Part shown: positions 1-12,107 of the stretch, one piece after another
Numbering within the stretch: the stretch's first letter is position 1
How the letters are laid out: each line of letters opens with the position of its first letter
Assembly (NCBI GenBank): GCA_964244895.1
Contig: CAXTKV010000161.1
Span: forward strand, 1-12,465
Reading direction: 5' to 3'
Source: an uncultured Deinococcales bacterium
GTDB lineage: Bacteria; Deinococcota; Deinococci; Deinococcales; JAAFIG01
Length of the DNA stretch: 12,465 nt
The notes under the pieces: generated by a model
Databases searched by the model: none
Seen by the model: the letters and a program-made list of their open reading frames with translations, nothing else
Told to the model about the DNA's origin: nothing
Position numbers and translations under genes: made by a program

Positions 1-21
1 GAGGATCGGATGCCGGTGTGA
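1..21 (+). CDS. Possible 3' end of an upstream gene (tnsC/tniB expected from context; only 6 codons visible, EDRMPV*)
   Basis: Frame 1 is open from base 1 to TGA at 19-21. That stop overlaps the tniQ GTG start as GTGA, the same 4-nt coupling used by the next two junctions. Identity is inferred from position only. Confidence 0.35.
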   Translation, partial: EDRMPV

Positions 22-977
22 AAGCCGTTAGCCACACTTCGCTTGACACGCCCGAGCTGTTTGAGTCATGGATCATGCGGCTGGGTCAAGCAAACATGAT
101 TCCAACGCCTCGGCTGGTCGAAGTATTGCAGCTTCGTCACGCGTTGTCGTCCTCGAATCATGTTTCTGCAGACGCTTTCCAACTACTCTCGAGTGTGACA
201 GGCGTATCGGATGTCCGAATCCGCGAGTCTCACCTGACGACTTTCAGTCGATACACGGAGTCCGTTTACAATGTCAAGTATGTCATTCCCGCCCGTACCC
301 AAGCTAAGTATTCAATTCCTTTTAAACCTTGCCCTCGCTGTCTAAACGAGTCAGATCGACCATATATTCGTCTGCATTGGGCGCTGGATCTCAGCTGCTT
401 TTGCGCCGTTCATCATTCGGTCCTGCTGGCCCGGTGTGTCAAATGCGGCAGTTTCTTTTCTCTCAAAGTGACCGAACCTGAGATTCCAATCCACCAATGC
501 CGCAAGTGTGGGTTCGATCTGCGCAACATCACCCCACGCGCTACGCCAGGGTTCGCAGAAGCCATCACTTTCCAAACGCGCCTCCTCGAGATGAAGCGAG
601 ACGCTGTCGTCAATTGGCCTGGAATTCGCTTGAAGGAACCCGCTGCGTTCGCTCAGATCGTTCAACGCCTCTTCCGAGCGCTTTGTGACACTCCGAGCCA
701 TCACGCACTCAGCGAGTTTACAGAGGAGTCATTCCGCTCGAACGTCCATCTGTTGGACGACCGATTCTCCTTTGAAATCAGAAGAACCAATGCGCTTTCC
801 ATGACAGCTTGGTTCCTGAGTAAACCAAGCTCGCATTGGGCAGCGCTCGGCCCACATCTCAGGCGGAATCTTCCATTGGAAGTGAGCGACAGGATCGCGG
901 TGGCCATGTGGCACGCTTTCAACGCTGCAGCAGCTTCAGTCGGTGTGCTCGAGCGGTCGAACGCGCTGACCTCGTGA
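18..977 (+). CDS. tniQ: TniQ family target-selector protein (319 aa)
   Basis: N-terminal PELFESWIMRLGQAN matches the TniQ E-x-x-SW-x-x-RL-x-x-x-N pattern. The Zn-finger cluster CPRCL...PYIRLHW...CAVH...LLARCVKCG...CRKCGFDL is characteristic of TniQ/TnsD. The length fits TniQ rather than a long TnsD. Confidence 0.9.
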   Translation: MKAVSHTSLDTPELFESWIMRLGQANMIPTPRLVEVLQLRHALSSSNHVSADAFQLLSSVTGVSDVRIRESHLTTFSRYTESVYNVKYVIPARTQAKYSIPFKPCPRCLNESDRPYIRLHWALDLSCFCAVHHSVLLARCVKCGSFFSLKVTEPEIPIHQCRKCGFDLRNITPRATPGFAEAITFQTRLLEMKRDAVVNWPGIRLKEPAAFAQIVQRLFRALCDTPSHHALSEFTEESFRSNVHLLDDRFSFEIRRTNALSMTAWFLSKPSSHWAALGPHLRRNLPLEVSDRIAVAMWHAFNAAAASVGVLERSNALTS

Positions 978-3688
978 AGCAGTTCGGACTCGAAGTTTGG
1001 GGCGATTTTGCGTGTTTCTCTCGGCCCGAATTGAAAGTCGAGCGTTACACATATCCGGTCATCACGCCGAGCGCCGCTCGCGCCATCTTCGACGCGATTT
1101 ACCTCAACTTTGATGGCGGTACGCCAAATCGCCCCACCTTTCGCTGGCAGGTAAGACGCATCGAGGTGGTCGAACCCGTGCACTACATTGCGCTGTCCCA
1201 GAACGAGGTCAAAGGGAAAATCCACACTGACAAAGTAGCGCTGTGGATGACGCACTCGGAGCAAATCGAACCTTTGATCGCCGACGCACGAGGCAAAGGA
1301 ACGGAAGAGTACGGTCGGACCCAGCGCCAAACGATTGGCCTGCGACGGGTGCGCTACCGGTTGTTCGCCGAGGCGGTGCTGTACGAGGAGAATCACACCC
1401 TGAGGCAGCTCATCGAAAAGATCTTCGCGCGACGCGCCCGCGCCGGCCAGTGCTACCACCAGCCGTGCCTCGGGCAACGCGAGTTCGGAGCGTACTTCGA
1501 GCTGGTCGAGACGCAAAGTGGACGCTGCGCCGCCGTCAACGAGGACATCGGCTGGATGGTCTACGACGTGTTCGACCTGTCCCGACCGGGTTCGAGTTCG
1601 GACCCGTGGAGTATCAGCACATTTCGCGCCCACGTCCGGGATGGCGTACTCGAGGTTCCACCGTACTCAAGCGAGGACGTCCACAAGTCAGGTTTGGCGC
1701 AATCGTTGCGCGAGCGTGGAAGTCCCCAAGTCGGGTCTGGCGCAACTGGGATGTTCGAAGCGCTCGTCGAGTACGCTCGGCGTACGGGGCTGGCGACCGA
1801 ACCGGGGTTCAGCGAGAAGGTCGTCCGCTGGATAGCGAACGTGAATCTTGATGGGGTGATCACGTCGGTCGCCCCTGCTGATCCCCTCAAAGGCCGTGCG
1901 GTCGTGTTCGCGTGCTGCCCAGATTTGCAACTCCCCGCGATCAAGGCGCTACCGGCGGCGCTCGGGAGGATGGAAAATGGGATCGCCGTTAAGCAAGGTG
2001 CGCACTTCCTCGCGGACACGTGCAGCACGGTTGGTCTGTTCCCGAACGGGTTGGACAGCAATCACAAAATCCTCGACAAGCACCGAGTTTTCACCCATCT
2101 AATCGAGCGGGCGAGTTGGATCATTCCCGAACTTCGACCAATTCATAGCGCACTGTCTGAGGCGAGTTTCCTCGTTCAGATACACGCCATGTTAATCGGG
2201 TGCGGGGCGAAACCAACGGATCGCCTGTCGTTCTCAGTCGATGGAGTTCCGGTGCCCGACATGAACGTCTGGCATTCTTGGTGGCGGGCATTCCGTGAAG
2301 AGGCATCCCCACGCAAACTGGAACGCAACATGGTGTGCCTCGCCACGGGAGAACGCGTCGTTCCAGCGAGAACGCATCCAAGACTCACCTCGCTGGGCGT
2401 GGGCGCTTCGAGTGTTGGAGCCAGCCTGATCGCCTCTGGCAAAGAAGCGTTCAGCTCGTCGAGCTTCCGTCAGGGTGAAAACAGCGCGCTCTCGGAGGAC
2501 GCCGCTTCGGCCTACACATCCGCGCTCGATCACCTGTTGCGCAGAGCGCCCGTCATCGACGGAACAAAAGTTGTTCACTGGTACAGCACCGATACGTCGA
2601 CGAGCCTCGATCCGCTCGCGCTGCTGTTTCAGCCCAGCGAAGTGCGCGAACTCGAAAATTTTTCATCTCGAACGTCCCTCACCAGCAGCGAAATTCGCGC
2701 GTTCGCCGACTGGCCCGGTTTACCCAATGCGCAATACCACGTCATGGTCGTGCGAGGCGCGAAGGCGCGCGCCCGCGTCAGGTTTTTTGCCTCTGGCACA
2801 CAGGAGCAGGCGGTGGCGGCGGTGAGCGCATGGTTCGCTGATTTAGAGGTCTGCACCATCTCTGGCGACGGCTCAACGAGCGCAACGCCCGCCAAACTCT
2901 TGGCGTCCATCAAGAAACCCATTGACAACGACAACGCGGAGGGGAACCGGAACAAGACCTTGCATTCCCTGCACGTTCGGCTCTGGCAGACTGCCCTTGA
3001 CCCGGCGGTTCCGGTGCCGATCTCGGTCGCGAACGACATCTTGACAACTCTCTACCGCAGTCTGGCGAATCGAGACTTCCAGAAAGCCGTGGCGTACACG
3101 CCCGCAACGTGGAATTCCACGTTGCGAGACACGTTACACGCTTGCATGGGGGGCCTCAAGGGGTATCTCGTCCGCGCTGGCGACCACGACATCACTGTCA
3201 ATCTGAACCCAAACCACCCGAGCGCGAATTATCAATCCGGTCGCTTGGCGGCGCTTCTTCATCGGATCGAGGAAATCGCTAACTCAAACCCGAGCAGTAA
3301 CAGTCACCAGGTATTTGCAGCGTCCATCGCAGGATTGATCGAAAGGCTTGATCGGCAGACGCGAACCGTCAAACGCAGCTTGGATTGGATCGCTGCCGCA
3401 CGTCCGTGGTTGGCCTTGGCGCTCGAATCGTATCTCGAGCGCATCTGGGAAAGCCTCGGCAGTGCTGTGCCCAGAAACAACAGTCCCAAAGCTCGAAGCC
3501 TCTTCATCCTCGGGTACTACCAGCAGCTCGCGTTCAACAATTCGAAACGTACCGCCAATCCAGCAGCTGAGTTCGATCTCGAAGACGGGGACGACACGAA
3601 TGAGGAAATGGATGACCTGTTTGAAACTATCGCAGACCAATCGGGGATGTCAGTCCAAAGTGATGACAACAAGGAGAGACACGAATGA
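974..3688 (+). CDS. cas5c-cas8c: Fused type I-C Cas5c (Cas5d) - Cas8c (Csd1) protein, about 904 aa from GTG 974
   Basis: The N-terminal part has Cas5c motifs (LEVWGDFACFSRPELKVERYTYPVITPSAARAIFDAIY, GQCYHQPCLGQREF). After a G/S-rich linker, MFEALVEYARR at 1751 begins Cas8c, with MVCLATGE...ARTHP, GASLI, YQSGRLAALL and FILGYYQQ motifs. No stop lies between the two parts. GTG 974 overlaps the tniQ stop (GTGA), so it is preferred over the ORF-track start at 836. Confidence 0.9.
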   Translation: MKQFGLEVWGDFACFSRPELKVERYTYPVITPSAARAIFDAIYLNFDGGTPNRPTFRWQVRRIEVVEPVHYIALSQNEVKGKIHTDKVALWMTHSEQIEPLIADARGKGTEEYGRTQRQTIGLRRVRYRLFAEAVLYEENHTLRQLIEKIFARRARAGQCYHQPCLGQREFGAYFELVETQSGRCAAVNEDIGWMVYDVFDLSRPGSSSDPWSISTFRAHVRDGVLEVPPYSSEDVHKSGLAQSLRERGSPQVGSGATGMFEALVEYARRTGLATEPGFSEKVVRWIANVNLDGVITSVAPADPLKGRAVVFACCPDLQLPAIKALPAALGRMENGIAVKQGAHFLADTCSTVGLFPNGLDSNHKILDKHRVFTHLIERASWIIPELRPIHSALSEASFLVQIHAMLIGCGAKPTDRLSFSVDGVPVPDMNVWHSWWRAFREEASPRKLERNMVCLATGERVVPARTHPRLTSLGVGASSVGASLIASGKEAFSSSSFRQGENSALSEDAASAYTSALDHLLRRAPVIDGTKVVHWYSTDTSTSLDPLALLFQPSEVRELENFSSRTSLTSSEIRAFADWPGLPNAQYHVMVVRGAKARARVRFFASGTQEQAVAAVSAWFADLEVCTISGDGSTSATPAKLLASIKKPIDNDNAEGNRNKTLHSLHVRLWQTALDPAVPVPISVANDILTTLYRSLANRDFQKAVAYTPATWNSTLRDTLHACMGGLKGYLVRAGDHDITVNLNPNHPSANYQSGRLAALLHRIEEIANSNPSSNSHQVFAASIAGLIERLDRQTRTVKRSLDWIAAARPWLALALESYLERIWESLGSAVPRNNSPKARSLFILGYYQQLAFNNSKRTANPAAEFDLEDGDDTNEEMDDLFETIADQSGMSVQSDDNKERHE

Positions 3689-4725
3689 ATCCGATCCAGA
3701 ACCGATACGAATTTCTAATCATTTTCGACTGCGAAAATGGCAACCCAAATGGCGACCCCGACGCTGGGGATCTGCCCCGTATGGACATTGAGGACGGGCA
3801 CGGTCAAGTCTCATCTGGATCAATCAAGCGACGAATTCGCGATTACGCTCACCTGCTCGGAGAAGCCATCCTCATTCAACGCTCGAGCAACATCAACAAA
3901 TCGATTTTTGAGGCTCGCGAGCAAACCGGCGATCCAAACGCCACTCCCACCATCAAACGTACGCAGGACGCCACCGCCTGGCTCTGCGAGAAGTTTTTCG
4001 ATGTGAGAACCTTCGGTGCAGTGCTGAGCACCGGCGCGAACGCGGGTCAAGTCACCGGCTCCGTGCAAATCAACTGGGCCAGAAGCATCGATCCCGTCCA
4101 CGTGATAGAAGCCACCATCACCCGAGTCGCTGTCACGGACAAGGCCGATGGAGCCAATTCCGTCGCGGACTTTGAAGATTGGGAGGCTGGGGAGGCCAGC
4201 GGTAGACTTCAGACGATGGGCCGCAAAAGCTTCATTCCCTACGGACTTTTTGTGGCCCCTGGCTTTGTGAGCGCGTTCCAGGCCCAGAGAACGGGCTTCT
4301 CGGAAGGCGATCTTGAGATTCTCTGCGAGGCCATCATGAATATGTTTGAACACAGCCGAACGTCGAGCAAAGGCATGATGTCAACCCGTCGGCTGATCGT
4401 ATTCAAACATTTGGGAACGAGAAAAGACCCTGAGCAGCAGGCACAGCAAGCCAAACTGGGCTGTGCACCTGCCCATAGGCTGCTCACGCTAGGACAAGTG
4501 GTCAGGATCCTTCGCCAAGATAAAACGCGACCGCCGAGAACCTACGCTGACTATACGGTGTCAGTGGATCAGAGCCAACTTCCAGTAGGCGTAGCCATGC
4601 TCGACCTCACCGTTTGGGATGCCGACGAGTTCCACAATGGATGGGTAGTGAAGCGCGAATCTCCAGTAGAGCCCGAAATCCGCAGAGGTTCGCGGAACAA
4701 GAGGACACCGTCAGGAACGAAATAA
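3685..4725 (+). CDS. cas7c: Type I-C Cascade backbone Cas7c (Csd2), 346 aa
   Basis: Motifs NRYEFLIIFDCENGNPNGDPDAGDLPRMD, IKRRIRDY, FFDVRTFGAV, TMGRKSFIPYGLF, AQRTGFSEGDL, MFEHSRTSSKG and LGCAPAHRL are typical of Csd2. There is an AAGGAG RBS and an ATGA overlap with the cas8c stop. Confidence 0.96.
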   Translation: MNPIQNRYEFLIIFDCENGNPNGDPDAGDLPRMDIEDGHGQVSSGSIKRRIRDYAHLLGEAILIQRSSNINKSIFEAREQTGDPNATPTIKRTQDATAWLCEKFFDVRTFGAVLSTGANAGQVTGSVQINWARSIDPVHVIEATITRVAVTDKADGANSVADFEDWEAGEASGRLQTMGRKSFIPYGLFVAPGFVSAFQAQRTGFSEGDLEILCEAIMNMFEHSRTSSKGMMSTRRLIVFKHLGTRKDPEQQAQQAKLGCAPAHRLLTLGQVVRILRQDKTRPPRTYADYTVSVDQSQLPVGVAMLDLTVWDADEFHNGWVVKRESPVEPEIRRGSRNKRTPSGTK

Positions 4726-4820
4726 ACTGGATTTTGACGAGTACGACGTGGCCCTTCATTAGCCAATAATTCGGAGTCCGCGTTTCAAGGTCGAAGAAAC
4801 TCGTGCTTTACACATTGGAG

Positions 4821-4826
4821 TATGAT
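4821..4826 (+). promoter_or_regulatory. Possible -10 element (TATGAT) for the CRISPR array
   Basis: TATGAT lies 4 nt before repeat 1, in the 105-bp gap between cas7 and the array. No convincing -35 was seen. Confidence 0.3.
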
Positions 4827-4830
4827 CGCT

Positions 4831-5078
4831 GTCTTCACGGCTTTATCGCCGTCGAGATGATTGAAACAACCCGCAACTCGCCGGACCGGCCATCGGTTCG
4901 ACCGCAGACCGTCTCCACGGCTTTATCGCCGTCGAGATGATTGAAACTGCTGCGAGGTCAGCAGCACCGTCCAGCCTGCGCCGAGTCTCCACGGCTTTAT
5001 CGCCATCGAGATGATTGAAACCGCAGCGAACTCGCGCTCTACCGGGGCTCCGAGCGTCTCCACGGCTTTATCGCCGTC
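4831..5078 (+). CRISPR. Mini CRISPR array: three full 37-bp repeats, one truncated terminal repeat, three spacers (43, 37, 34 bp)
   Basis: Consensus GTCTCCACGGCTTTATCGCCGTCGAGATGATTGAAAC at 4831-4867 (one change), 4911-4947 and 4985-5021 (one change), with a 23-nt partial copy at 5056-5078. The repeat has an ACGGC/GCCGT hairpin and a 3' ATTGAAAC handle. Spacers are 4868-4910, 4948-4984 and 5022-5055. Confidence 0.95.
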
Positions 5079-5249
5079 TATACGACTGGCCCCCGCTGAA
5101 ATCATCGCGCTGACGGCAGGTCTCAAAGTCTTCATAAGGTTTTGATTATCAGTCGAAAATTTACTGGGCATTTGTCGAAATTGGATCAAGATTCCAATCG
5201 TTCTGTTGGATGTATGCTCTTCTCGTTTAAAACGCTCAATCCATTGAGC

Positions 5250-5309
5250 GCCTCTACAACCCTTGGTTGTCGAGATGATTGAAACCACCGACAGATCATC
5301 GAAGGCGTG
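5250..5309 (+). CRISPR. Delocalised atypical repeat (5250-5285) plus putative homing spacer (5286 to about 5309)
   Basis: GCCTCTACAACCCTTGGTTGTCGAGATGATTGAAAC shares its last 17 nt with the array repeat and keeps the hairpin as ACAAC/GTTGT. The following CACCGACAGATCATCGAAGGCGTG matches minus-strand 5617-5594 at 17/24 positions, next to TTC. Confidence 0.85.
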
Positions 5310-5400
5310 TTTTTATGGATACCCAGATCTTGCATCTTCCAAAAAGCACAAAAGCTAAACCGCAGAATTGTTAAACGTTTCAAAACTAACCATGATTTAT

Positions 5401-5550
5401 TGCTGACGTGGCTAACGATAAAATCCTTTAGGTTCACGAATCAAATTGACGTATAGAACGGAGATGTTTACGATTCCCAAGATTACTGACGTGGCAAACG
5501 ATACTGACACGTCAAACGATCATTGCTGACATTTTAAACGAAAAGCCACA
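5401..5550. repeat. Transposon end: five TnsB-binding-site-like direct repeats and terminal ACA (5'-TGTGGCTT on the minus strand)
   Basis: The motif CTGAC-N5-AAACGA occurs at about 5403 (ctgacgtggctaacga), 5446 (ttgacgtatagaacgg, degenerate), 5486 (ctgacgtggcaaacga), 5504 (ctgacacgtcaaacga) and 5526 (ctgacattttaaacga). The last copy is about 9 bp from terminal ACA at 5550. This fits Tn7-family TGT...ACA end architecture. Confidence 0.85.
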
Positions 5551-5555
5551 CGATG
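5551..5555 (+). other. Predicted 5-bp target-site duplication (CGATG)
   Basis: These are the five bases right after the terminal ACA, and Tn7-family elements make 5-bp TSDs. The second copy cannot be seen in this window. Confidence 0.45.
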
Positions 5556-5569
5556 CCTGACTCAGCACC

Positions 5570-6421
5570 TCAACCCTTGACGCCCGTCAGAACGACACCC
5601 TCGATGATCTGCTTCTGGAAGATCACGAACACCGCCAGCACGGGAATCACGGCCAAACTGGAAGCCGCCATGATCAACTGCCATTGCGAGCCCGTCTCGC
5701 CGCTGAAACGCGCGATGCCGAGCGGCAAGGTGAACAGGTCAGCGCTGGTCGTGACGATCAACGGCCACAGGAACGCGTTGTAATTACCCAGGAACGTGAA
5801 GATCGCCAGCGCCGCCAGCGCGGGCCGCACGAGCGGCAGGCCGATCTTTGAAAACAAGCCGAATTCGGAGAGTCCATCCAGGCGCGCGGCATCGAAGAGC
5901 TCGTCCGGGATGCCCTCGAAGAAACCCCGCATCAAAAAGACGCCGAAAGCCGAAATCAATCCCGGCAGGGCGATCGCCAGATACGAATTGTTGATGCCGA
6001 GCTTGATCGCGCCGACGTACCACGGGATGACCAGCATTTCCGTGGGGATCATCAGCGTTGAGAGGATCACGACGAAAATGATTTCCTTGCCGGGGAATTT
6101 CATTTTGGCCAGCGTGTAGCCGACCAGCGAATCGAAGAACAGCACGCTGGCGGTCGTGGCCGCCGCGACCCCGATGGAGTTCAGGAACCAGCGCGGGAAT
6201 TCGGTTCTGGACAGGATTTCAACGTAGTTGCCGAGCGTCGGCACGGCCCGCGCGGGCCAGATGCCGGGTTGCAGCGCGTCCGCGTAGCTTTTCAGGCTGG
6301 TCAACAGCATCCACACGAACGGGAAGGCCGTGACGATGCTGCCCGCGATCAAGAGCGCGTAGACCCACCACGGCCCATCGCGCCGTTTTTCTCGAGGTTG
6401 CTTCATCGCACCCGCCGCCAT
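5570..6421 (-). CDS. Carbohydrate ABC transporter permease (MalG/UgpE-like), 283 aa
   Basis: Multiple TM helices, PFVWMLLTSLK, the EAA-loop variant IPDELFDAARLDGLSEF, NYNAFLWPLIV and C-terminal FQKQIIEGV. Start is 6421 or the ATG five codons later. Confidence 0.95.
   Translation of the reverse strand: MAAGAMKQPREKRRDGPWWVYALLIAGSIVTAFPFVWMLLTSLKSYADALQPGIWPARAVPTLGNYVEILSRTEFPRWFLNSIGVAAATTASVLFFDSLVGYTLAKMKFPGKEIIFVVILSTLMIPTEMLVIPWYVGAIKLGINNSYLAIALPGLISAFGVFLMRGFFEGIPDELFDAARLDGLSEFGLFSKIGLPLVRPALAALAIFTFLGNYNAFLWPLIVTTSADLFTLPLGIARFSGETGSQWQLIMAASSLAVIPVLAVFVIFQKQIIEGVVLTGVKG
5594..5620 (-). other. Putative protospacer (5617 to 5594) with 5' TTC PAM (5620-5618) inside the 3' end of the permease gene
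   Basis: The minus strand reads TTC|CAGAAGCAGATCATCGAGGGTGTC versus spacer CACCGACAGATCATCGAAGGCGTG. TTC is the established type I-C PAM and is exactly in register with spacer position 1. Confidence 0.75.
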
Positions 6422-6449
6422 CCGCTCACCCGCCTCTCGAGCGAGAGAA

Positions 6450-6493
6450 CACCGTCCTGGACGCGGTACTCGAACACTGCGTCCAGGACGGTG
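6450..6493. repeat. REP-like palindrome copy A
   Basis: Perfect 15-bp arms CACCGTCCTGGACGC (6450-6464) and GCGTCCAGGACGGTG (6479-6493), between the two permease genes. Confidence 0.75.
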
Positions 6494-6504
6494 GTCTCGC
6501 CCTT

Positions 6505-6539
6505 ACCCGCGACCCGTGACCCCTGACCCGTGACCACTC
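6505..6539 (+). repeat. Short heptamer tandem repeat (about 5 x ACCCGTG)
   Basis: acccgcg acccgtg acccctg acccgtg accactc, directly after the stop codon of the upstream permease. Confidence 0.7.
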
Positions 6540-7467
6540 AGTACTCCACCCTTCGCCTCGAGAACCGCAACTGAACGACCGTGATCACCAGAATGATCGC
6601 GAACAACAGCACCGTGATCGCGGCGGCGTAACCCATGCGCGATTCCACAAAACCCTGGCGGTAGATGTACAGCGCGACCGTCAGGGTGCTGTCCAACGGC
6701 CCGCCCTGATCGGAAGGCGTCAGGTTCACGACCTGCGCGAACAGTTGCAGGAAGCCGTTCGTGGCGATCACCAGGCTGAATACGATGGTCGCGTTCAACA
6801 GCGGTACGGTCACGAAGCGGAATTTCTGCCACGGGTTCGCGCCGTCCAGTTCGGCGGCCTCGTAGTACATGCGAGGCACGCCCTCCAATCCCGCCAGGAA
6901 GATCACGATCTGAAACCCGAGCTGCTGCCAGATCACCAGCGCCGCCGCCGAGACGAGCGCCTGATCCGGCGAGGCCAGGAACGGCTGGGCGGGCAGGTGC
7001 AAGAATTCCAGCAACTGGTTGACCGGGCCGATGTTCTTGTTCAGCAACCACTGCCAGACCCAGGCGCTGGCCACGATCGGCGTGACGAAGGGCGCGAAGT
7101 AAATCGCGCGGAACGCGCCCCTGGCCTTGTTGACCGATTGCAGCAGCATGGCCACGCCCAACCCGAGCGCGAGCTGCGCGGGCACGCCGATCAGCGCGTA
7201 CAAAAGCGTGTTCGTGAGCGCCCGCCCGAGGGTCGCGTCGGATGCCATGTCGCGGAAATTTTCAATCCCCACGAACGGGCTGGGCGTCAGCGGCGAACGG
7301 TAATCGAGCAGGCTCAATCGCAAACTTTCCAGCGCAGGGTACAGGCGCACCACCAGAAAAAACGCCAGCGGCACGATTAAGAAAATGTACGCCCAGAGCG
7401 CCTGGCGTTGCGCCAGCGTCAAGCCTTTGCGCCCGGTTGGGGACGCGTTCGCTCGGGTCGTGGCCAT
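6538..7467 (-). CDS. Carbohydrate ABC transporter permease (MalF/UgpA-like), about 309 aa
   Basis: FVGIENF, FRAIYFAPFVTP, IFLAGLEGVPRMYYEAAELDGANPWQKFRFVTVPLL (EAA loop) and MGYAAA. ATG 7467 (MATTRA) is preferred over 7557 because TAAACT lies 5 nt upstream and the extra 30 codons look non-conserved. Confidence 0.95.
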   Translation of the reverse strand: MATTRANASPTGRKGLTLAQRQALWAYIFLIVPLAFFLVVRLYPALESLRLSLLDYRSPLTPSPFVGIENFRDMASDATLGRALTNTLLYALIGVPAQLALGLGVAMLLQSVNKARGAFRAIYFAPFVTPIVASAWVWQWLLNKNIGPVNQLLEFLHLPAQPFLASPDQALVSAAALVIWQQLGFQIVIFLAGLEGVPRMYYEAAELDGANPWQKFRFVTVPLLNATIVFSLVIATNGFLQLFAQVVNLTPSDQGGPLDSTLTVALYIYRQGFVESRMGYAAAITVLLFAIILVITVVQLRFSRRRVEY

Positions 7468-7472
7468 GCGAA

Positions 7473-7478
7473 AGTTTA
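7473..7478 (-). promoter_or_regulatory. -10 box TAAACT of a probable leaderless promoter
   Basis: The minus strand reads TAAACT-ttcgc-ATG with no SD sequence. Confidence 0.5.
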
Positions 7479-7591
7479 ACCCCGAACCGAAGTTGTACAC
7501 ACCGAACCGAGCGGACTCGAGCGCCAGACCTCGCTCGTCTTTGGGGTGAAGCTCCAAAGAAGCCCGAGCCGATCTCGTTATGAAGGGGGAA

Positions 7592-7650
7592 ACCGTTCAG
7601 GACTCATTTTCTCGAGCATCCGATGTTGCGTCCTGGACGGTCTTCTCGAG
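7592..7650. repeat. REP-like palindrome copy B
   Basis: Arms ACCGTTCAGGACTC (7592-7605) and GCGTCCTGGACGGT (7628-7641) with 2 mismatches, followed by CTTCTCGAG. The loop resembles that of copy C. Confidence 0.65.
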
Positions 7651-7921
7651 CGTCGAGGGCTTCGCGCCCTGAGCTTCAACCGACGCCGATCTGAACGGTT
7701 TGCGCGAAGGACGAGCCGTGCGCCCGACCGAGGATCGTCGAGCAAAATGCGATCCGAGAACAGCGGATCTGTCTGCAACGACAAAAATGTTTGGTAGCGC
7801 ACGTGAAGAAAGCCGAGGGAATCCATAATTTTTTGACATCGAAGGCTCGAGCGAGCACCTGAAAAGCGCCCGTCCACATCGAGATACCGCAACTCCTTCG
7901 AGGAATTCATCAGGGGGCGAC

Positions 7922-8866
7922 ATGAAAAAGGCTTTGATTCTGACGGCGGCATTCTTTCTTTCGGCCTGCAATACCACGCCAGTGACGGGTTCAGACGCGG
8001 TTCTGGCGGTGCAAAGTGCTCCCGGTCATACCGGGGTTGGACCATCCGGTTGGATCATGGCGGGCGCTGGTGATTTTGATGGCGATGGCAAAACCGATGA
8101 TCTGGTCTGGCGGAACTACAAATCCGGGCAAAACGTCGTCTGGTTGATGGAAGGCTCGAGCATCGTCGGTTCAGGCTGGCTGCCCAGTGCGACGCTGGAT
8201 TGGGTGATCGGGGCGGTGGGCGACATGGACGGCGATGGTCGCCGCGATGACATCGTCTGGCGCAACCGCAGCAATTTCTCAAACGCGATCTGGTTCATGG
8301 ACGGCTACACCATCACCAGTGCGACAGGCTTCACCGACGGCTCCACGCTCGGTCACTTCAACAACGGTGTGCGCGACGACCCCGAAGGGCCAGGCTGGGA
8401 AATCAAAGGGGCGGGCGATTTCAACGGCGATGGTTACGGCGATGTGCTTTGGCGTCACGGCCCACACGGCGAAAACGCCATCTGGTACATGAGGGGCGCC
8501 ACCTTCTTAGGGGCAGCCGCGTTGCCACGAACCACTGATCCACAATGGGACATCGTGGGCGTGGGAGACATGAACGGTGACGGTCAAAGCGATATCGTCT
8601 GGCAGCACTGGCCCCAGCCCATCCCTGGAACCCCAAAAATAGATCGGGTCAACAGCATCTGGTTCATGAATGGTTCCTCGGTGACGAGCTACAGCCTCGC
8701 CGCGTCCGCAGGAGATCCGGGCTGGGTCATTCAGACGATCGGGGAAAACAATGGCGATGGCAAAGGGGACATGTACTGGCGCTATGACCCAACGGGCGAT
8801 TGCGTGTACTGGAACATGAACGGCACGACACCCATAAGCGGCGCGTACTTTGCTACAGTTTTCTGA
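7922..8866 (+). CDS. Lipoprotein with FG-GAP/VCBS-like repeats (probable Ca-binding beta-propeller), 314 aa
   Basis: Signal peptide and lipobox MKKALILTAAFFLSA-C. Five repeats of W-x-I-x-G-x-G-D-F/M-D/N-G-D-G-x-x-D-I/L-V-W-R followed by N-x-I/V-W-x-M-x-G. A G-rich RBS (CAGGGGG) precedes the start. Confidence 0.9.
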   Translation: MKKALILTAAFFLSACNTTPVTGSDAVLAVQSAPGHTGVGPSGWIMAGAGDFDGDGKTDDLVWRNYKSGQNVVWLMEGSSIVGSGWLPSATLDWVIGAVGDMDGDGRRDDIVWRNRSNFSNAIWFMDGYTITSATGFTDGSTLGHFNNGVRDDPEGPGWEIKGAGDFNGDGYGDVLWRHGPHGENAIWYMRGATFLGAAALPRTTDPQWDIVGVGDMNGDGQSDIVWQHWPQPIPGTPKIDRVNSIWFMNGSSVTSYSLAASAGDPGWVIQTIGENNGDGKGDMYWRYDPTGDCVYWNMNGTTPISGAYFATVF

Positions 8867-8919
8867 GCTTCAGATCGAAACGCGTTTCGAGTCGGGCAAT
8901 CCCTGCGGGCGACCTTTGA

Positions 8920-8983
8920 AGAAGACCGTCCGGGACGCGTTTTTTCGAGCATCAAACGGGGCGTCCCGGACGGTCTTCTCGAG
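8920..8983. repeat. REP-like palindrome copy C
   Basis: Perfect 19-bp arms AGAAGACCGTCCGGGACGC (8920-8938) and GCGTCCCGGACGGTCTTCT (8961-8979), ending in CTCGAG. Confidence 0.75.
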
Positions 8984-9030
8984 GCCGGCCTCTGGAGCGC
9001 AGACGCGCAGAACAGCTTTCTCGAGATGCG

Positions 9031-9057
9031 AAAAGGGCGACCACTGGGTCGCCCTTT
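9031..9057. terminator. Probable intrinsic terminator between convergent genes
   Basis: AAAGGGCGACC-actg-GGTCGCCCTTT hairpin with short A/T tails, about 15 bp past the stop of the solute-binding protein gene. Confidence 0.75.
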
Positions 9058-9072
9058 GATTCAAGCTGAAGA

Positions 9073-10347
9073 TCAATTGCGCTTGAAGTAATCGCTCACG
9101 AACTTTTGCTCGCCCGCCACGGCATCCGCCAGGGCTTTGGCCGGATCGGTCTTGGTCAACCAGACGCTGTACATCGCGTCCGTCAGGGCCTTGCGCTGGC
9201 CAGCCTCGTTGACGAAAAAAGTAGCGTGCGCGAACGGCAAGCTCGAGAAGAACGGGCCGTAAATGGGATCGTTGCGCAGCTTCGCATCGCGCGAGAGCTT
9301 CGTGTTGGCCGGAATCTCGCCGACTTTCTCGAGCCAGCGGCGCTGCACGGGTTCAGAGGTCAGGAACTTCAACCAGGCCACGCTCGCGGCCAATTTCGGG
9401 CCGGTGGCGTTCTTGGTCAGGCCGTGAACCCAGTACGAACCGAAGTTCGCCTTCAGGCCGCCCGAAGTTTTGGTGGGCAACTCGAAGGTGCCCCAATCGA
9501 ACTTGGCGGCGCTGCGAATTGAGCCGATCGCGAAGCTGCCGTCCACGATCATGCCCGCCTTGCCCGCGATGAACGCGTCGCGGTACTCGTTGCCGGACGC
9601 GGGCACCAGATCCTTGCCCTGCGTGGCCGCGCCGCGCTCGATCAGGCCCGTGTACCACTTGAAGGCCTCGAGCCCGGCGGGGCTGTTGTAGGCCATGGTC
9701 TTGAAGTCCGTCGTGTAAGGCTTTCCGCCCCACTGGCGCACCAGCACCTCGCGGAAAAGCTGGTGATCCTGGCCCTCGGGCTGGATCGCCCAACCGGCGG
9801 TCACGACCTTGCCGTTGTCCACCTTCTGAATCTTCTTGGCGATGGCCTCGAGTTCATCCCAGGTTTTGGGCAGTTTGGTGACGCCCGCCGCCTTGAACAA
9901 GTCCTTGTTGTAAAAAATCGCCAGGGCGCGCACGGCGGTCGGCACCGCCCAGTATTTGCCGTCCACCTTGGAAGCCTTGATCAGCGGCCCGACGCTCTCC
10001 TCGAGATCCTTGGGCGCGAACGCGTCCGTCGGTAGGGGCTGCAAATACCCGCCCCCGGCGAAATCTGGAACCCAGCCGTAGAACATGTTCAGCACGTCCG
10101 GGCCTTGCCCCGCGCCGACGGCGCTCTTGGCTTTGGCGATGAAATCGTTGTACGGGAAGTTCTCTTGCTTGACTTCAATGTTGGGGTTGGCGGCGTTGAA
10201 TTCCTTGATCAGGTCGTTCACCAAACTGACCTTGGAATCGAACTGGTACTGCCAGTAAGTGATCTGCACCTTCTGGTTTTGCGCCATCGCGCCCAGCGTG
10301 ACTGTGGCGGCGAGCGCGGCGGTAGCGATCAGGTAGCGCTTTTTCAT
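9073..10347 (-). CDS. Sugar ABC transporter extracellular solute-binding protein (family 1), about 424 aa
   Basis: Signal peptide MKKRYLIATAALAATVTLGAMA preceded by an AGAGGA RBS (start 10347, not 10485). Motifs FNAANPNIEV, GQGPDV, DGKYWAVP, IFYNKDLF...PKTWDEL and FIAGKAGMIVDGSF. Confidence 0.95.
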   Translation of the reverse strand: MKKRYLIATAALAATVTLGAMAQNQKVQITYWQYQFDSKVSLVNDLIKEFNAANPNIEVKQENFPYNDFIAKAKSAVGAGQGPDVLNMFYGWVPDFAGGGYLQPLPTDAFAPKDLEESVGPLIKASKVDGKYWAVPTAVRALAIFYNKDLFKAAGVTKLPKTWDELEAIAKKIQKVDNGKVVTAGWAIQPEGQDHQLFREVLVRQWGGKPYTTDFKTMAYNSPAGLEAFKWYTGLIERGAATQGKDLVPASGNEYRDAFIAGKAGMIVDGSFAIGSIRSAAKFDWGTFELPTKTSGGLKANFGSYWVHGLTKNATGPKLAASVAWLKFLTSEPVQRRWLEKVGEIPANTKLSRDAKLRNDPIYGPFFSSLPFAHATFFVNEAGQRKALTDAMYSVWLTKTDPAKALADAVAGEQKFVSDYFKRN

Positions 10348-10569
10348 GCGTTCCTCTTTCTGTGAGCGGTGCTGGACATCCGGGCCGACGGCGCAGTCTA
10401 ACAAGCAATGAGAATCTGCTCGAGTTGCCTGGATCGCTTTTGAATCGCGTTGCGGTGATCTTTGGAGCATCCCGACGCGCCGCAATCAGGGATGTTTCCT
10501 CGAGCTTGGCTGGAGGATCATTGCGTCTGCGAGGGCATCAAATGTCTCAATCTCGAGAAACACCGTCAT

Positions 10570-10639
10570 CTCGAGGAAAACCGTCTGGGACGCATTTCTT
10601 CGAGATTCAGATTTCGCGCGCTGGACGGTATCTCTCGAG
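10570..10639. repeat. REP-like palindrome copy D (degenerate)
   Basis: CTCGAGgaaaACCGTCTGGGACGC ... GCGCGCTGGACGGTatctCTCGAG, immediately after the stop of the kinase gene. Confidence 0.6.
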
Positions 10640-10643
10640 GCCG

Positions 10644-12101
10644 TCAGTTCTGCGCCGTCTTCTGCGTCTCCACCCGCGACCCCAGAACGCGGTTGGCGAT
10701 GACTTCAATCGCGCCCTCGGCGGCCCGATCCAGGCTCTCGCCGTCGATGATCGGCACGCCGACGGTCTTGGCCATCTGCTCGACGTAATTTTGCAACTCG
10801 CGAATGGACGCGAAATGATCCAGGTAGCGCTTCATCGGGCGGTGCTGGCTGGTTTCGGCATCGCGCAAGTAAAAGCGCTTGCGGTGCTCTTCCTCGTTGC
10901 GCACCATCACCACCATCGGCACGACGATGGCGTCTTTGAAGGCCTCTATGGGCAAGAATCCGGGCACGATGTGGACGCCTTCGAGCACCATCGACGTGTG
11001 TTCGTCGCTGCCGCGCTCGATGATCGCGCGCAACCCGACGCTGACCTGCTGCACCTGATCGCGGAAGCCGTCGAGGAGTTGATCGGGCGTGGGCTTGATG
11101 TCCGTGCCCTTGAGTTGCGCCAGCTCGTGCGGGTGCAGGGTCGTCATCCACGCATCGAAGCTCGAGGCGTGCAGGGTCGGGATCAGATCCTTGCTGACCA
11201 TCGCGCGCATGACCTGACGCACGCTGTCGGTCGATTCAATTCGGGTGATGCCCAGCCGGTACGCGACCTCTGCGGCCAGCACGCTTTTGCCCGTGCCAGT
11301 CACGCCGCCGATCAGGATGTGCAAGGGCTTGTCCGGGCGACGCACGCTGCGCAGCAGTTCATAGCGTCGCGCCACGTCCTCGCCGAACTCGAGGTGCAGG
11401 ATCGCGTTGACCTTCTCGCGCAAGCTCTCGCGCGGGATGAACGGTTCGGCGTCCGCGAAGAGCTTCATCTCGACCTCGCGCGCCACGCGGTGCGCATCGT
11501 TCGGCGAGAGTCCTGTGGCCATCAAAGATTGCGCCAGGATGCCCTTCGAGTACGGGAACGAAACCCCGTTGTCCTCCAGCACGTTGACCTGCGCCGCGCG
11601 GCGGTAGCGCTCCAGGTACGCGTCCTTGGCCTCGCGCCCGAAACGCCGTTCGACCTCGGCCAGCACGCGCTGTTCCAGGCCGCCGCGTTCAATTCTGGTG
11701 ATGCCCTGAATCCGCAAGGTGCGCTCGATGTCCTTTGAGAGTTCGTAGGCGTCACGGATCGGCAAGCCCGCCAGTTCGAGCGACCTTGAGAGGATGCCCT
11801 TCGAGAACGGAATCCGCGCGTCCCCATCGATCACCACGACATCCTCGAAGGCTGGCGTCTGCGCCTCGAGCCGATCCGCGACCGCATCGCCCAGCACCGT
11901 GCGGGTCTCTTGGGCCACGAAGATCTTGAGCGTGCCCGGATCGACCACGCGGCGGTTCTCGTCGAGCAGACGCTGTTCCACGCGGCGCGCAATGGCGATG
12001 GCGGGCTCTCGTTCGATGTCTGCGTTCAGCAAGGATTCCACGACCAGACCCTTCGAAAAGGGCCAGGCGTGATCACCGCTGGCGACGGAAATTTCCCGCA
12101 T
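10644..12101 (-). CDS. ATP-cone-repeat / 2-phosphoglycerate-kinase-like P-loop protein, about 485 aa
   Basis: Three N-terminal ATP-cone-like repeats (PFSKGLVVESL, PFSKGILSRSL, PYSKGILAQSL), Walker A ILIGGVTGTGKS, and STDSVRQVMR, LHASSF and LEGVHIVPG typical of the 2-PGK family. ATG 12101 was chosen because TAGACT lies 6 nt upstream; GTG 12107 is the alternative. Confidence 0.88.
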   Translation of the reverse strand: MREISVASGDHAWPFSKGLVVESLLNADIEREPAIAIARRVEQRLLDENRRVVDPGTLKIFVAQETRTVLGDAVADRLEAQTPAFEDVVVIDGDARIPFSKGILSRSLELAGLPIRDAYELSKDIERTLRIQGITRIERGGLEQRVLAEVERRFGREAKDAYLERYRRAAQVNVLEDNGVSFPYSKGILAQSLMATGLSPNDAHRVAREVEMKLFADAEPFIPRESLREKVNAILHLEFGEDVARRYELLRSVRRPDKPLHILIGGVTGTGKSVLAAEVAYRLGITRIESTDSVRQVMRAMVSKDLIPTLHASSFDAWMTTLHPHELAQLKGTDIKPTPDQLLDGFRDQVQQVSVGLRAIIERGSDEHTSMVLEGVHIVPGFLPIEAFKDAIVVPMVVMVRNEEEHRKRFYLRDAETSQHRPMKRYLDHFASIRELQNYVEQMAKTVGVPIIDGESLDRAAEGAIEVIANRVLGSRVETQKTAQN

Positions 12102-12107
12102 GCGCAC

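Follow-up and report, generated by a model that had tools for sequence, protein, structure and literature searches.

A Tn7-like transposon arm with a Cas3-less type I-C Cascade in an uncultured Deinococcales bacterium, and comparative evidence for RNA-guided homing in related elements

The window analyzed in this work, a 12,465-nt stretch of DNA from an uncultured Deinococcales bacterium, is the whole of contig CAXTKV010000161.1 (C161), one of the 328 contigs in the genome bin GCA_964244895.1. The features of a transposon arm span its positions 54-5550. Based on gene content, transposon ends and comparison with three related elements (in genomes G129, G130 and G138), the window is very probably the arm on the CRISPR side of a Tn7-like transposon which has co-opted a Cas3-less type I-C Cascade for RNA-guided homing, that is, of a CRISPR-associated transposon (CAST). 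The anatomy, both ends, the target-site duplication and a guide/target geometry that recurs in three elements carry this finding.

Genes, array and ends of the transposon arm

The features of the window were located as follows, with position 1 as its first base.

1-53, no strand: start of the contig, formed by the outward end of a multi-copy repeat by which tniQ is interrupted; identical at 8 oriented contig ends
54-977, plus strand: tniQ, missing about 13-25 N-terminal codons; Pfam TniQ, E 2.6e-12
974-3688, plus strand: cas5c-cas8c, a single reading frame; Pfam Cas_Cas5d (E 5.9e-22) and Cas_Csd1 (E 1.3e-48) in one open reading frame (ORF)
3685-4725, plus strand: cas7 (Csd2); Pfam Cas_Cas7, E 9.4e-82
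4831-5092, plus strand: mini CRISPR array, 37-nt repeats at 4831, 4911 and 4985 and a degenerate repeat at 5056; repeat family D1
5248-5285, plus strand: atypical (delocalised) repeat; repeat family D2; 3' half same as that of the array repeat
5286-5319, plus strand: homing guide (spacer behind the atypical repeat); matches the flank as reverse complement
5401-5418, 5484-5501, 5502-5519 and 5524-5541, plus strand: four direct repeats of transposase-binding type, CTGAC-N5-AAACGA; families D3 and D4
5540-5550, no strand: terminal 11 bp of the CRISPR-side end, TGTGGCTTTTC read from the tip inward; equal to the first 11 bp of the end on contig C202
5551-5555, no strand: 5-bp target-site duplication CGATG; the same pentamer precedes the other end at C202:8394-8398
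5570-6421, minus strand: ABC-transporter permease gene (Pfam BPD_transp_1), its conserved 3' end being the attachment site
5584-5620, minus strand: protospacer, base 1 at 5617 down to 5584, with the protospacer adjacent motif (PAM) TTC at 5620-5618; from alignment to the guide

The original prediction had described tniQ, cas5c-cas8c and cas7 as a chain of overlapping genes, and both the Pfam matches and the overlap coordinates (GTGA at 974-977 for tniQ/cas5, ATGA at 3685-3688 for cas8c/cas7) agreed with it. The TniQ domain was contained in an open-ended frame (3-977), in which native tniQ sequence began at base 54 (ELFESW) and ended with the stop codon TGA at 975-977. The cas genes were assigned to type I-C by Pfam (PF09704, PF09709 and PF05107), and their nearest named relatives were type I-C proteins. 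Between cas7 and the transposon end, no gene for Cas3, Cas6 or adaptation was found, as had been predicted; the sole ORFs there were two unscanned minus-strand frames overlapping the array. No intact cas3 belonging to the operon was found either.

The fused cas5c-cas8c frame encoded 950 residues, with its true start, GTG, at 974. The Cas5 part (about 974-1690) was followed by a linker of about 20 residues and then by the own ATG of cas8c at 1751 (MFEALVEY), with no stop codon at the junction and the reading frame kept. Compared with the separate proteins of the relatives, the fusion showed 51-59% identity in Cas5 and 31-40% in Cas8c, and its Cas5 part matched solved Cas5c/Cas5d pre-crRNA endonucleases at E values of 1e-29 to 1e-37, the matches to Cas5c lying at 1e-31 to 1e-37. 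The fusion was seen only in the window copy, the three relatives keeping two genes; an index of 5.8 billion proteins gave ordinary Cas8c at 33-34% identity and no further protein as long as the fusion. The predicted effector of two cas ORFs plus tniQ was in this way found in the window copy, but not in the relatives with their separate cas5, cas8c and cas7. In the linker (1690-1750), two near-identical 18-nt segments, AAGTC(A/G)GG T(T/C)TGGCGCAA, were present about 40 nt apart, and this near-duplication may be the record of how the cas5 stop codon vanished.

The mini-array and the delocalised guide were both found as predicted, with the array at 4831-5092, the atypical repeat at 5248-5285 and the guide from 5286. 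A 105-bp leader separated the array from cas7, and the array spacers (43, 37 and 34 nt) gave no convincing match in the genome, plasmids or phages. The array repeat folded into a two-tier hairpin with a 9-nt tail (z -3.9), and the typical repeats of all four elements shared this structure, with tails ending in (G/C/T)TTGAAAC or TTTGAAC and z from -3.3 to -3.9. A hairpin followed by a tail ending in ATTGAAAC was found, as in type I-C repeats, and the tail presumably becomes the 5' handle of the CRISPR RNA (crRNA), for which an 11-nt handle rule was assumed. The atypical repeat was located about 155 bp beyond the array. Its inner stem had changed relative to the array repeat (ACAACC/GGTTGT vs ACGGC/GCCGT) and still paired owing to compensatory changes; its fold reached -10.1 kcal/mol, and only 1 of 200 shuffles folded equally well. 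In the atypical repeat of G138, G-C pairs were replaced by A-U pairs with the hairpin kept, and that of G129 folded weakly, being equalled by 70 of 200 shuffles. No Rfam family was detected in window positions 4600-5700.

The CRISPR-side tip ended in ...CCACA at 5550 (...GAAAAGCCACA), an end of the TGT/ACA type, and C161 was the only contig of the genome with at least two CTGAC-N5/6-AACGA sites. The Tn7-like end that had been predicted from the four binding sites, the tip and CGATG was confirmed, and so was the expectation of a second end preceded by CGATG. On contig C202, positions 8394-8409 read ...GGAG CGATG TGTGGCTTTTC..., the same pentamer and 11 terminal bases in inverted orientation, with sites resembling the binding repeats following. 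A further 250 bp inward, an ORF running off C202 matched residues 13-200 of the 821-residue TnsAB of G129 with 47% identity. Contig C198 started with TnsAB residues 533-816 (45% identity to G129), followed by a TniB-type TnsC (46%) and then cargo. The search for TnsA, TnsB and TnsC, set beforehand as the refuting test, in this way returned TnsAB fragments on C202 and C198 and TnsC on C198; with TniQ in the window, the core genes were represented, and the complete trio was present in G129. The element as a whole thus takes up no fewer than three contigs (C202, C198 and C161), and inverted termini, binding repeats and duplication were shared between the window and C202.

Proposed homing guides and their targets in the related elements

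The TniQ subfamily of the window was small: a HMMER search of 1.84 billion representative proteins gave 10 matches at E<1e-30 and 11 full-length ones (about 300-330 residues) at E<1e-26. A word-index search with TniQ gave no match, a locus search with a 4-row TniQ alignment found no relative in either of two collections, and the single sequence P0012 found none in metagenome contigs. Among plasmids, TniQ showed only N-terminal similarity to generic TniQ genes, and 0 of 18 records covered 80% of the query.

In G129, G130 and G138, tniQ was followed by separate cas5 (238-244 amino acids), cas8c (605-637 amino acids) and cas7 (about 341 amino acids) genes and then by a short array. The order tniQ, cas5, cas8c, cas7 was therefore common to all four elements, and the stop/start overlap of tniQ and cas5 to the window and G138. 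In G129 the element was complete: flanked by CCTAT duplications, it measured 48,819 bp and ran from one end through tnsAB, tnsC, roughly 40 kb of cargo and tniQ to cas5, cas8c, cas7, the array, the atypical repeat with its guide, and the other end. Its cargo encoded, among other things, a GTPase-associated system for defence that has a SIR2 effector, an RHS toxin accompanied by immunity proteins, a subtilase and a secretin. Matches to Cas3, Cas1, Cas2, Cas4 and Cas6 were found in 0 of its 34 ORFs of at least 110 amino acids, and only a single TniQ was present. The 821-residue protein gave weak TnsA-N, integrase-core and Mu-transposase-C matches in that order, which identified it as a TnsA-TnsB fusion.

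G138 showed the same guide arrangement, with atypical repeat and guide on the opposite strand. In G138:C421 (locus L058), a left-end-like terminus at 2533-2549, 16/17 identical to the G138 right-end tip, lay 2 bp from the apparent right end of another Tn7-like element, an arrangement that suggests tandem elements at one site. In G130, two ends on two contigs shared a TTGGT duplication, and an insertion sequence (IS) lay between cas7 and the array. In addition, an internal tRNA-Arg(CCT) gene with its own promoter was observed in G130:C136 (L036; 367-443 and 19-95), 22 nt past the last array repeat, on the stretch that separates the array from the end, and in the same orientation as the tRNA-Arg gene abutting the element.

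Guides were searched for by comparing the last 900 nt inside each element with 200 nt outside, on both strands. A single strong inside/outside match was obtained in the window and another in G129, each starting directly after the atypical repeat and as reverse complement. A PAM-flanked guide match at fixed distance and orientation was found in three of the four elements, listed here with the distance of protospacer base 1 from the transposon tip.

Window: target 3' end of the ABC permease gene; PAM TTC; base 1 at 67 bases beyond the tip; tip confirmed by duplication
G129: target 5' half of tRNA-Met; PAM CTC; base 1 at 69 bases beyond the tip; tip confirmed by duplication
G138: target 3' end of tRNA-Leu; PAM TTC; base 1 at 66 bases beyond the tip; tip not confirmed by duplication

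In all three targets the PAM-distal side was towards the transposon end. The PAMs followed 5'-TTC (YYC-type), which we take to be the type I-C rule. In the window, the element was inserted 15-19 bp past the permease stop codon, and the protospacer lay in frame within the last 16 permease codons. The window guide matched its target at 21/34 positions, a score reached by 2 of 2000 shuffled flanks, and at 16/22 over the first 22 nt, a length settled on after the alignments had been seen, which 3 of 5000 shuffled flanks reached. Over the same 22 nt, the guides of G129 and G138 matched at 18/22 and 17/22, scores attained by 0 of 5000 shuffled flanks each. Their mismatches within the first 20 nt fell at positions 6, 12, 18 and 19 (G129) and 6, 9 and 18 (G138). 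Every sixth crRNA base is flipped out in type I Cascade, which leaves positions 6, 12 and 18 unpaired, and therefore most of the mismatches to the tRNA targets would cost nothing.

The window target was then compared with its orthologues. Permease orthologues with 72-79% identity were present in 17 of the 18 other genomes of the family, and the C-terminus FQ(K/R)QIIEGVVLTG.KG* was nearly invariant, occurring in all 11 orthologues examined. Read in the same frame, the permease gives QKQIIEGVVLT and the guide HRQIIEGVFLW, the differences being mostly third-codon positions and conservative replacements, so that the window guide reads like a diverged copy of the permease C-terminal codons. With the orthologue of G143 it agreed at 20/22, failing to match at positions 3 and 6 alone, and with the G142 orthologue at 19/22; the PAM was TTC in 4 and TTT in 7 of the 11 orthologues. 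The better fit to G143 and G142 and the invariant C-terminus suggested that the guide is tuned to the conserved gene end rather than to this host, the known pattern in other homing CASTs. The rest of the flank (5570-12107) was an ordinary sugar-type ABC transporter operon, with one permease at 5570-6421, a second at 6538-7557 and the solute-binding protein at 9073-10485; it further contained an FG-GAP repeat protein (7922-8866) and an ATP-cone/AAA protein (10644-12107).

Taken together, the comparative evidence for RNA-guided homing is strong. The RNA-guided transposon of the original prediction is supported by a layout shared with three related elements, two of them with the same guide, PAM and distance geometry at other targets; RNA-guided insertion itself and every biochemical step are what we infer from them. 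In the proposed mechanism, the cas operon and array would be transcribed and the repeats cut by Cas5c, because of which no Cas6 would be needed. Cascade loaded with the crRNA from behind the atypical repeat would bind a YTC-flanked site in a conserved host gene, and TniQ at the PAM-distal side would recruit TnsC and then TnsAB. Insertion would leave the CRISPR-side end turned towards the target, place the tip at 66-69 bp from base 1 of the protospacer and generate the 5-bp duplication. To enter other mobile DNA, the element would rely on ordinary spacers or on crRNAs of a host type I-C array.

Competing explanations and the state of the window copy

Several observations weigh against RNA-guided homing by this element. 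About 330 middle residues of TnsAB, corresponding to some 1 kb of the gene, were missing from the contigs and fall into an assembly gap, and the window tniQ is truncated. The window guide matches its present target at only 16/22, with seed mismatches at positions 3-5, and three other genomic sites scored 18/22, with GCG, CAA and CCC in the PAM position. Over 34 nt the matches of G129 and G138 were not significant, 295 and 220 of 2000 shuffles reaching them; therefore their homing guides would effectively be about 20-22 nt long. The option of skipping positions 6, 12 and 18, like the 22-nt score, was chosen after the alignments had been seen. The G138 tip is inferred, its best left-end candidate being flanked by ACATT and not ACAAA, and no guide was detected in G130, where a more sensitive search gave the internal tRNA copy only. 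Close TniQ relatives were present in only 3 of 362 other genomes of the order (G138, G129 and G130), and the four elements are not independent because all come from one bacterial family. Lastly, no empty site was seen: in 11 relatives, the 1.5 kb downstream of the permease orthologues contained nothing that corresponds to the DNA and gene left of the C202 end. The predicted PAM-flanked match in the flanking gene was confirmed, with a TTC and 16/22 positions, but the match alone was not unique in the genome; the argument draws on its position, its orientation, the PAM and the recurrence in several elements, and match score alone would not carry it.

It was also considered whether the cas genes could be passive cargo or a defence remnant, with a TnsD-like TniQ protein picking the site and the guide matches being incidental. 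Tn7-like elements carry many defence systems as cargo, and in the TnsAB-fusion I-B2 and I-D CASTs a TnsD protein finds tRNA sites (PMC9881144); the G130 element likewise sits at a tRNA with no detectable guide. This explanation is nevertheless very unlikely, since the tniQ stop codon overlaps the cas5 start codon in the window and G138, and in all four elements tniQ directly precedes the cas genes in the same order. The TniQs are short (about 320 amino acids), with only the zinc-ribbon core resembling solved TniQ/TnsD, and G129 has no second one. Four elements occupy four attachment sites, three of which are spelled out behind an atypical repeat, at fixed distance and with a YTC PAM, and the complete G129 element carries neither cas3 nor adaptation genes.

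The Cas3-less Cascade might instead be an RNA-guided DNA binder with another function, for instance in repressing the flanking gene or in competition among mobile elements, and only be carried along by the transposon. A type I-C system that lacks Cas3 and has fused Cas8 and Cas5 has been proposed as a DNA binder (PMC10910872), and the window protospacer does lie inside the permease gene. Binding within the last 16 codons or in a tRNA gene has no obvious regulatory logic, however, and the constant spacing of 66-69 bp, the constant orientation and the tie to tniQ would be left unexplained, so that we regard this account as highly improbable.

A Tn7-like transposon with RNA-guided homing therefore remains the preferred explanation, and the question concerns the state of the copy in the window. 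Bases 1-53 were common to 7 other contig ends (C5, C115, both ends of C187, C215, C225 and C297), and all eight sequences diverged afterwards; the shared 53 bases followed by full divergence are what the outward end of a multi-copy element looks like in a short-read assembly. No internal copy of this repeat was found in the bin, from which the body of the element was absent, and the repeat is probably an IS. A second, related terminus headed three further contig ends (C173, C240 and C246). The first residue of the window TniQ aligned to residues 14-26 of full-length relatives, past the conserved W..HPQP..G motif, and with native sequence from base 54 this indicated that the tniQ start was lost. 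A six-frame motif scan of the bin for the missing 5' piece gave only noise and the unrelated TniQ on C191. On the remaining contigs that this repeat borders, judged from ORF lists without a domain scan, nothing stood out as a tnsC or tniQ start.

The window copy is probably inactive for guided movement because the repeat element removed the 5' end of tniQ. On balance it seems rather likely that the elements as a group are RNA-guided and that this copy is a decaying relic, inherited only vertically; this refines the explanation preferred here and does not replace it. In favour of decay are the replacement of the first 13-25 tniQ codons by the 1-53 repeat, the loss of the cas5 stop codon in a fusion absent from three relatives, the better fit of the guide to the target of other genera than to that of its own host, and the IS that G130 likewise bears between cas7 and its array. 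On the other hand, every downstream reading frame is intact, and the fusion is in frame with the ATG of cas8c kept; in type I-F3 CASTs it is normal for Cas8 and Cas5 to be fused. With a genome assembled from a metagenome, the junction with the repeat may stand for only part of the population, and a 90%-identical Cas7 in another metagenome showed that the lineage is not unique to this bin.

Origin of the Cascade, known systems and significance

The window Cas7 showed 51-57% identity to the Cas7 of the relatives, 55-62% to ordinary Deinococcota type I-C Cas7 and 90% to the metagenomic P0159. In a quick maximum-likelihood tree of 122 Cas7 sequences (three database rows identical to named rows were dropped), the four transposon-borne Cas7s fell into one 23-row clade (SH-aLRT 99) nested among ordinary type I-C Cas7s. 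The clade also took in P0159, P0167 and P0246, and the contigs of P0167 and P0246 were equal in size to those of the TniQ relatives P0009 and P0010.

The host genome contained a type I-C locus of its own at C36:22873-32156, with Cas1 (Pfam), an array of at least 11 repeats, and flanking ORFs that, judged by size only, were as expected for cas3, cas5, cas8c, cas7 and cas4. Canonical type I-C systems (the Cascade of PDB 8DEX and the host C36 locus) share with the transposon the Cas5c, Cas8c and Cas7 families, a repeat ending in GATTGAAAC and a TTC-type PAM; the canonical loci have a Cas1 gene and long arrays, and C36 also has ORFs of Cas3 and Cas4 size, none of which the transposon version has. 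The repeat tails of host C36 (AGGATTGAAAC) and transposon (ATGATTGAAAC) differed by one base, which makes the use of host crRNAs in trans conceivable. Such use was demonstrated for I-F CASTs in a 2024 paper.

The genome is rich in Tn7/Tn5053-like transposons. A second candidate CRISPR-transposon was observed outside the window, at C102:10779-18256 and C235:1-1222 (loci L053 and L054), in the order tnsB (703 amino acids), tnsC (422), tniQ (447), cas6e, an I-E-type array of 4 repeats, cse1/cas8e, cas7e and cas5e. The ORFs scanned over the next approximately 6 kb gave no match to either Cas3 or Cas1. The I-E CASTs found in print were Streptomyces telomeric TnsBC elements only, which lack TniQ and keep cas3, and the TniQ-bearing I-E form on C102/C235 may be different from them. 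Fragments of Tn7/Tn5053-like transposons unrelated to the window element were also present on C191 (TniB and a 470-residue TniQ) and C327 (TnsA C-terminus and TnsB N-terminus).

Type I-C CASTs have been described before from sequence: nine systems from metagenomes were reported by Rybarski et al. 2021 (bioRxiv 10.1101/2021.08.16.456562), consistent with the view in the original prediction that the association of I-C with Tn7 genes was known bioinformatically only. Those systems share with the window a Tn7-like core with Cas5, Cas8c and Cas7 and the lack of Cas3 and adaptation genes. In them, tniQ lies beside tnsABC and neither an array nor a homing spacer or attachment site was detected, whereas here tniQ joins the cas operon, far from tnsAB and tnsC, and the array, atypical guide, PAM, spacing and attachment sites are visible. 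A 2024 paper likewise states that recognisable arrays are lacking in these putative systems. In the literature searched, which left most subscription journals outside its coverage, the 2021 survey was the only source of type I-C CASTs and no experimental test was found.

Compared with other CASTs, the present elements combined features known from different types. The I-F3 CASTs (Tn6677/VchCAST and relatives) likewise place cargo between the transposase genes and a tniQ-cas operon, and they have very short arrays, an atypical repeat followed by a homing spacer for the conserved end of a host gene, a CRISPR-side end facing the target and a 5-bp duplication. They differ in having Cas6, a Cas8/Cas5 fusion and separate TnsA and TnsB, whereas here a type I-C Cascade without a Cas6 gene was found. 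The TnsC of G129 matched VchTnsC only distantly (E 3e-7) and ShTnsC at E 6e-4, its TnsAB gave no match against solved structures, and the TniQ subfamily profile matched solved TniQ/TnsD in the zinc-ribbon core only (best E 3e-9). The V-K CASTs (ShCAST) share the small TniB-like TnsC, the attachment at tRNA genes and a delocalised guide that is short and separate from the array; they use a single Cas12k with a trans-activating CRISPR RNA (tracrRNA) and no TnsA, and the similarity in TnsC and TniQ is remote only. With the I-B2 and I-D CASTs (PmcCAST and McCAST; PMC9881144), a TnsA-TnsB fusion and tRNA attachment sites are shared; these have TnsD-like homing with a second TniQ, Cas6 and, in McCAST, TAC/GTA ends, in contrast to the one TniQ, apparently RNA-guided homing and TGT/ACA ends found here. 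The system of Altae-Tran et al. 2023 (PMC10910872) is likewise type I-C without Cas3 and with Cas5 and Cas8 fused, but was presented as a possible DNA binder with no transposon link.

Based on these comparisons, the elements probably represent a type I-C CAST lineage distinct from the nine of 2021 and the first in which the full working anatomy can be read. This lineage would have a Cascade made up only of Cas5c, Cas8c and Cas7, with Cas6 absent, together with a single short TniQ, a fused TnsA-TnsB and a small TnsC of TniB type. It would home by guides some 20-22 nt in length, placed after atypical repeats on one strand or the other, use a YTC PAM and insert at 61-64 bp, measured from protospacer base 1 to the near edge of the duplication; it may also borrow host crRNAs.

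RNA-guided transposons insert large pieces of DNA without double-strand breaks. To our knowledge, all tested type I CASTs (I-F3, I-B and I-D) need Cas6 and at least four cas genes. The 2021 survey came without array, guide or attachment site and so offered no way to design an experiment on type I-C CASTs. The elements described here supply both ends, the typical and the atypical repeat, the PAM, guide length, spacing and orientation, and complete gene sets (G129 and G138). They would be the fourth case in which a TnsAB-type transposon and a Cascade came together independently, and they raise the structural question of where TniQ docks on a Cascade that has no Cas6. If this reading is true, the near-identical repeat handle may let the element borrow the crRNAs of its host for spread into other mobile DNA.

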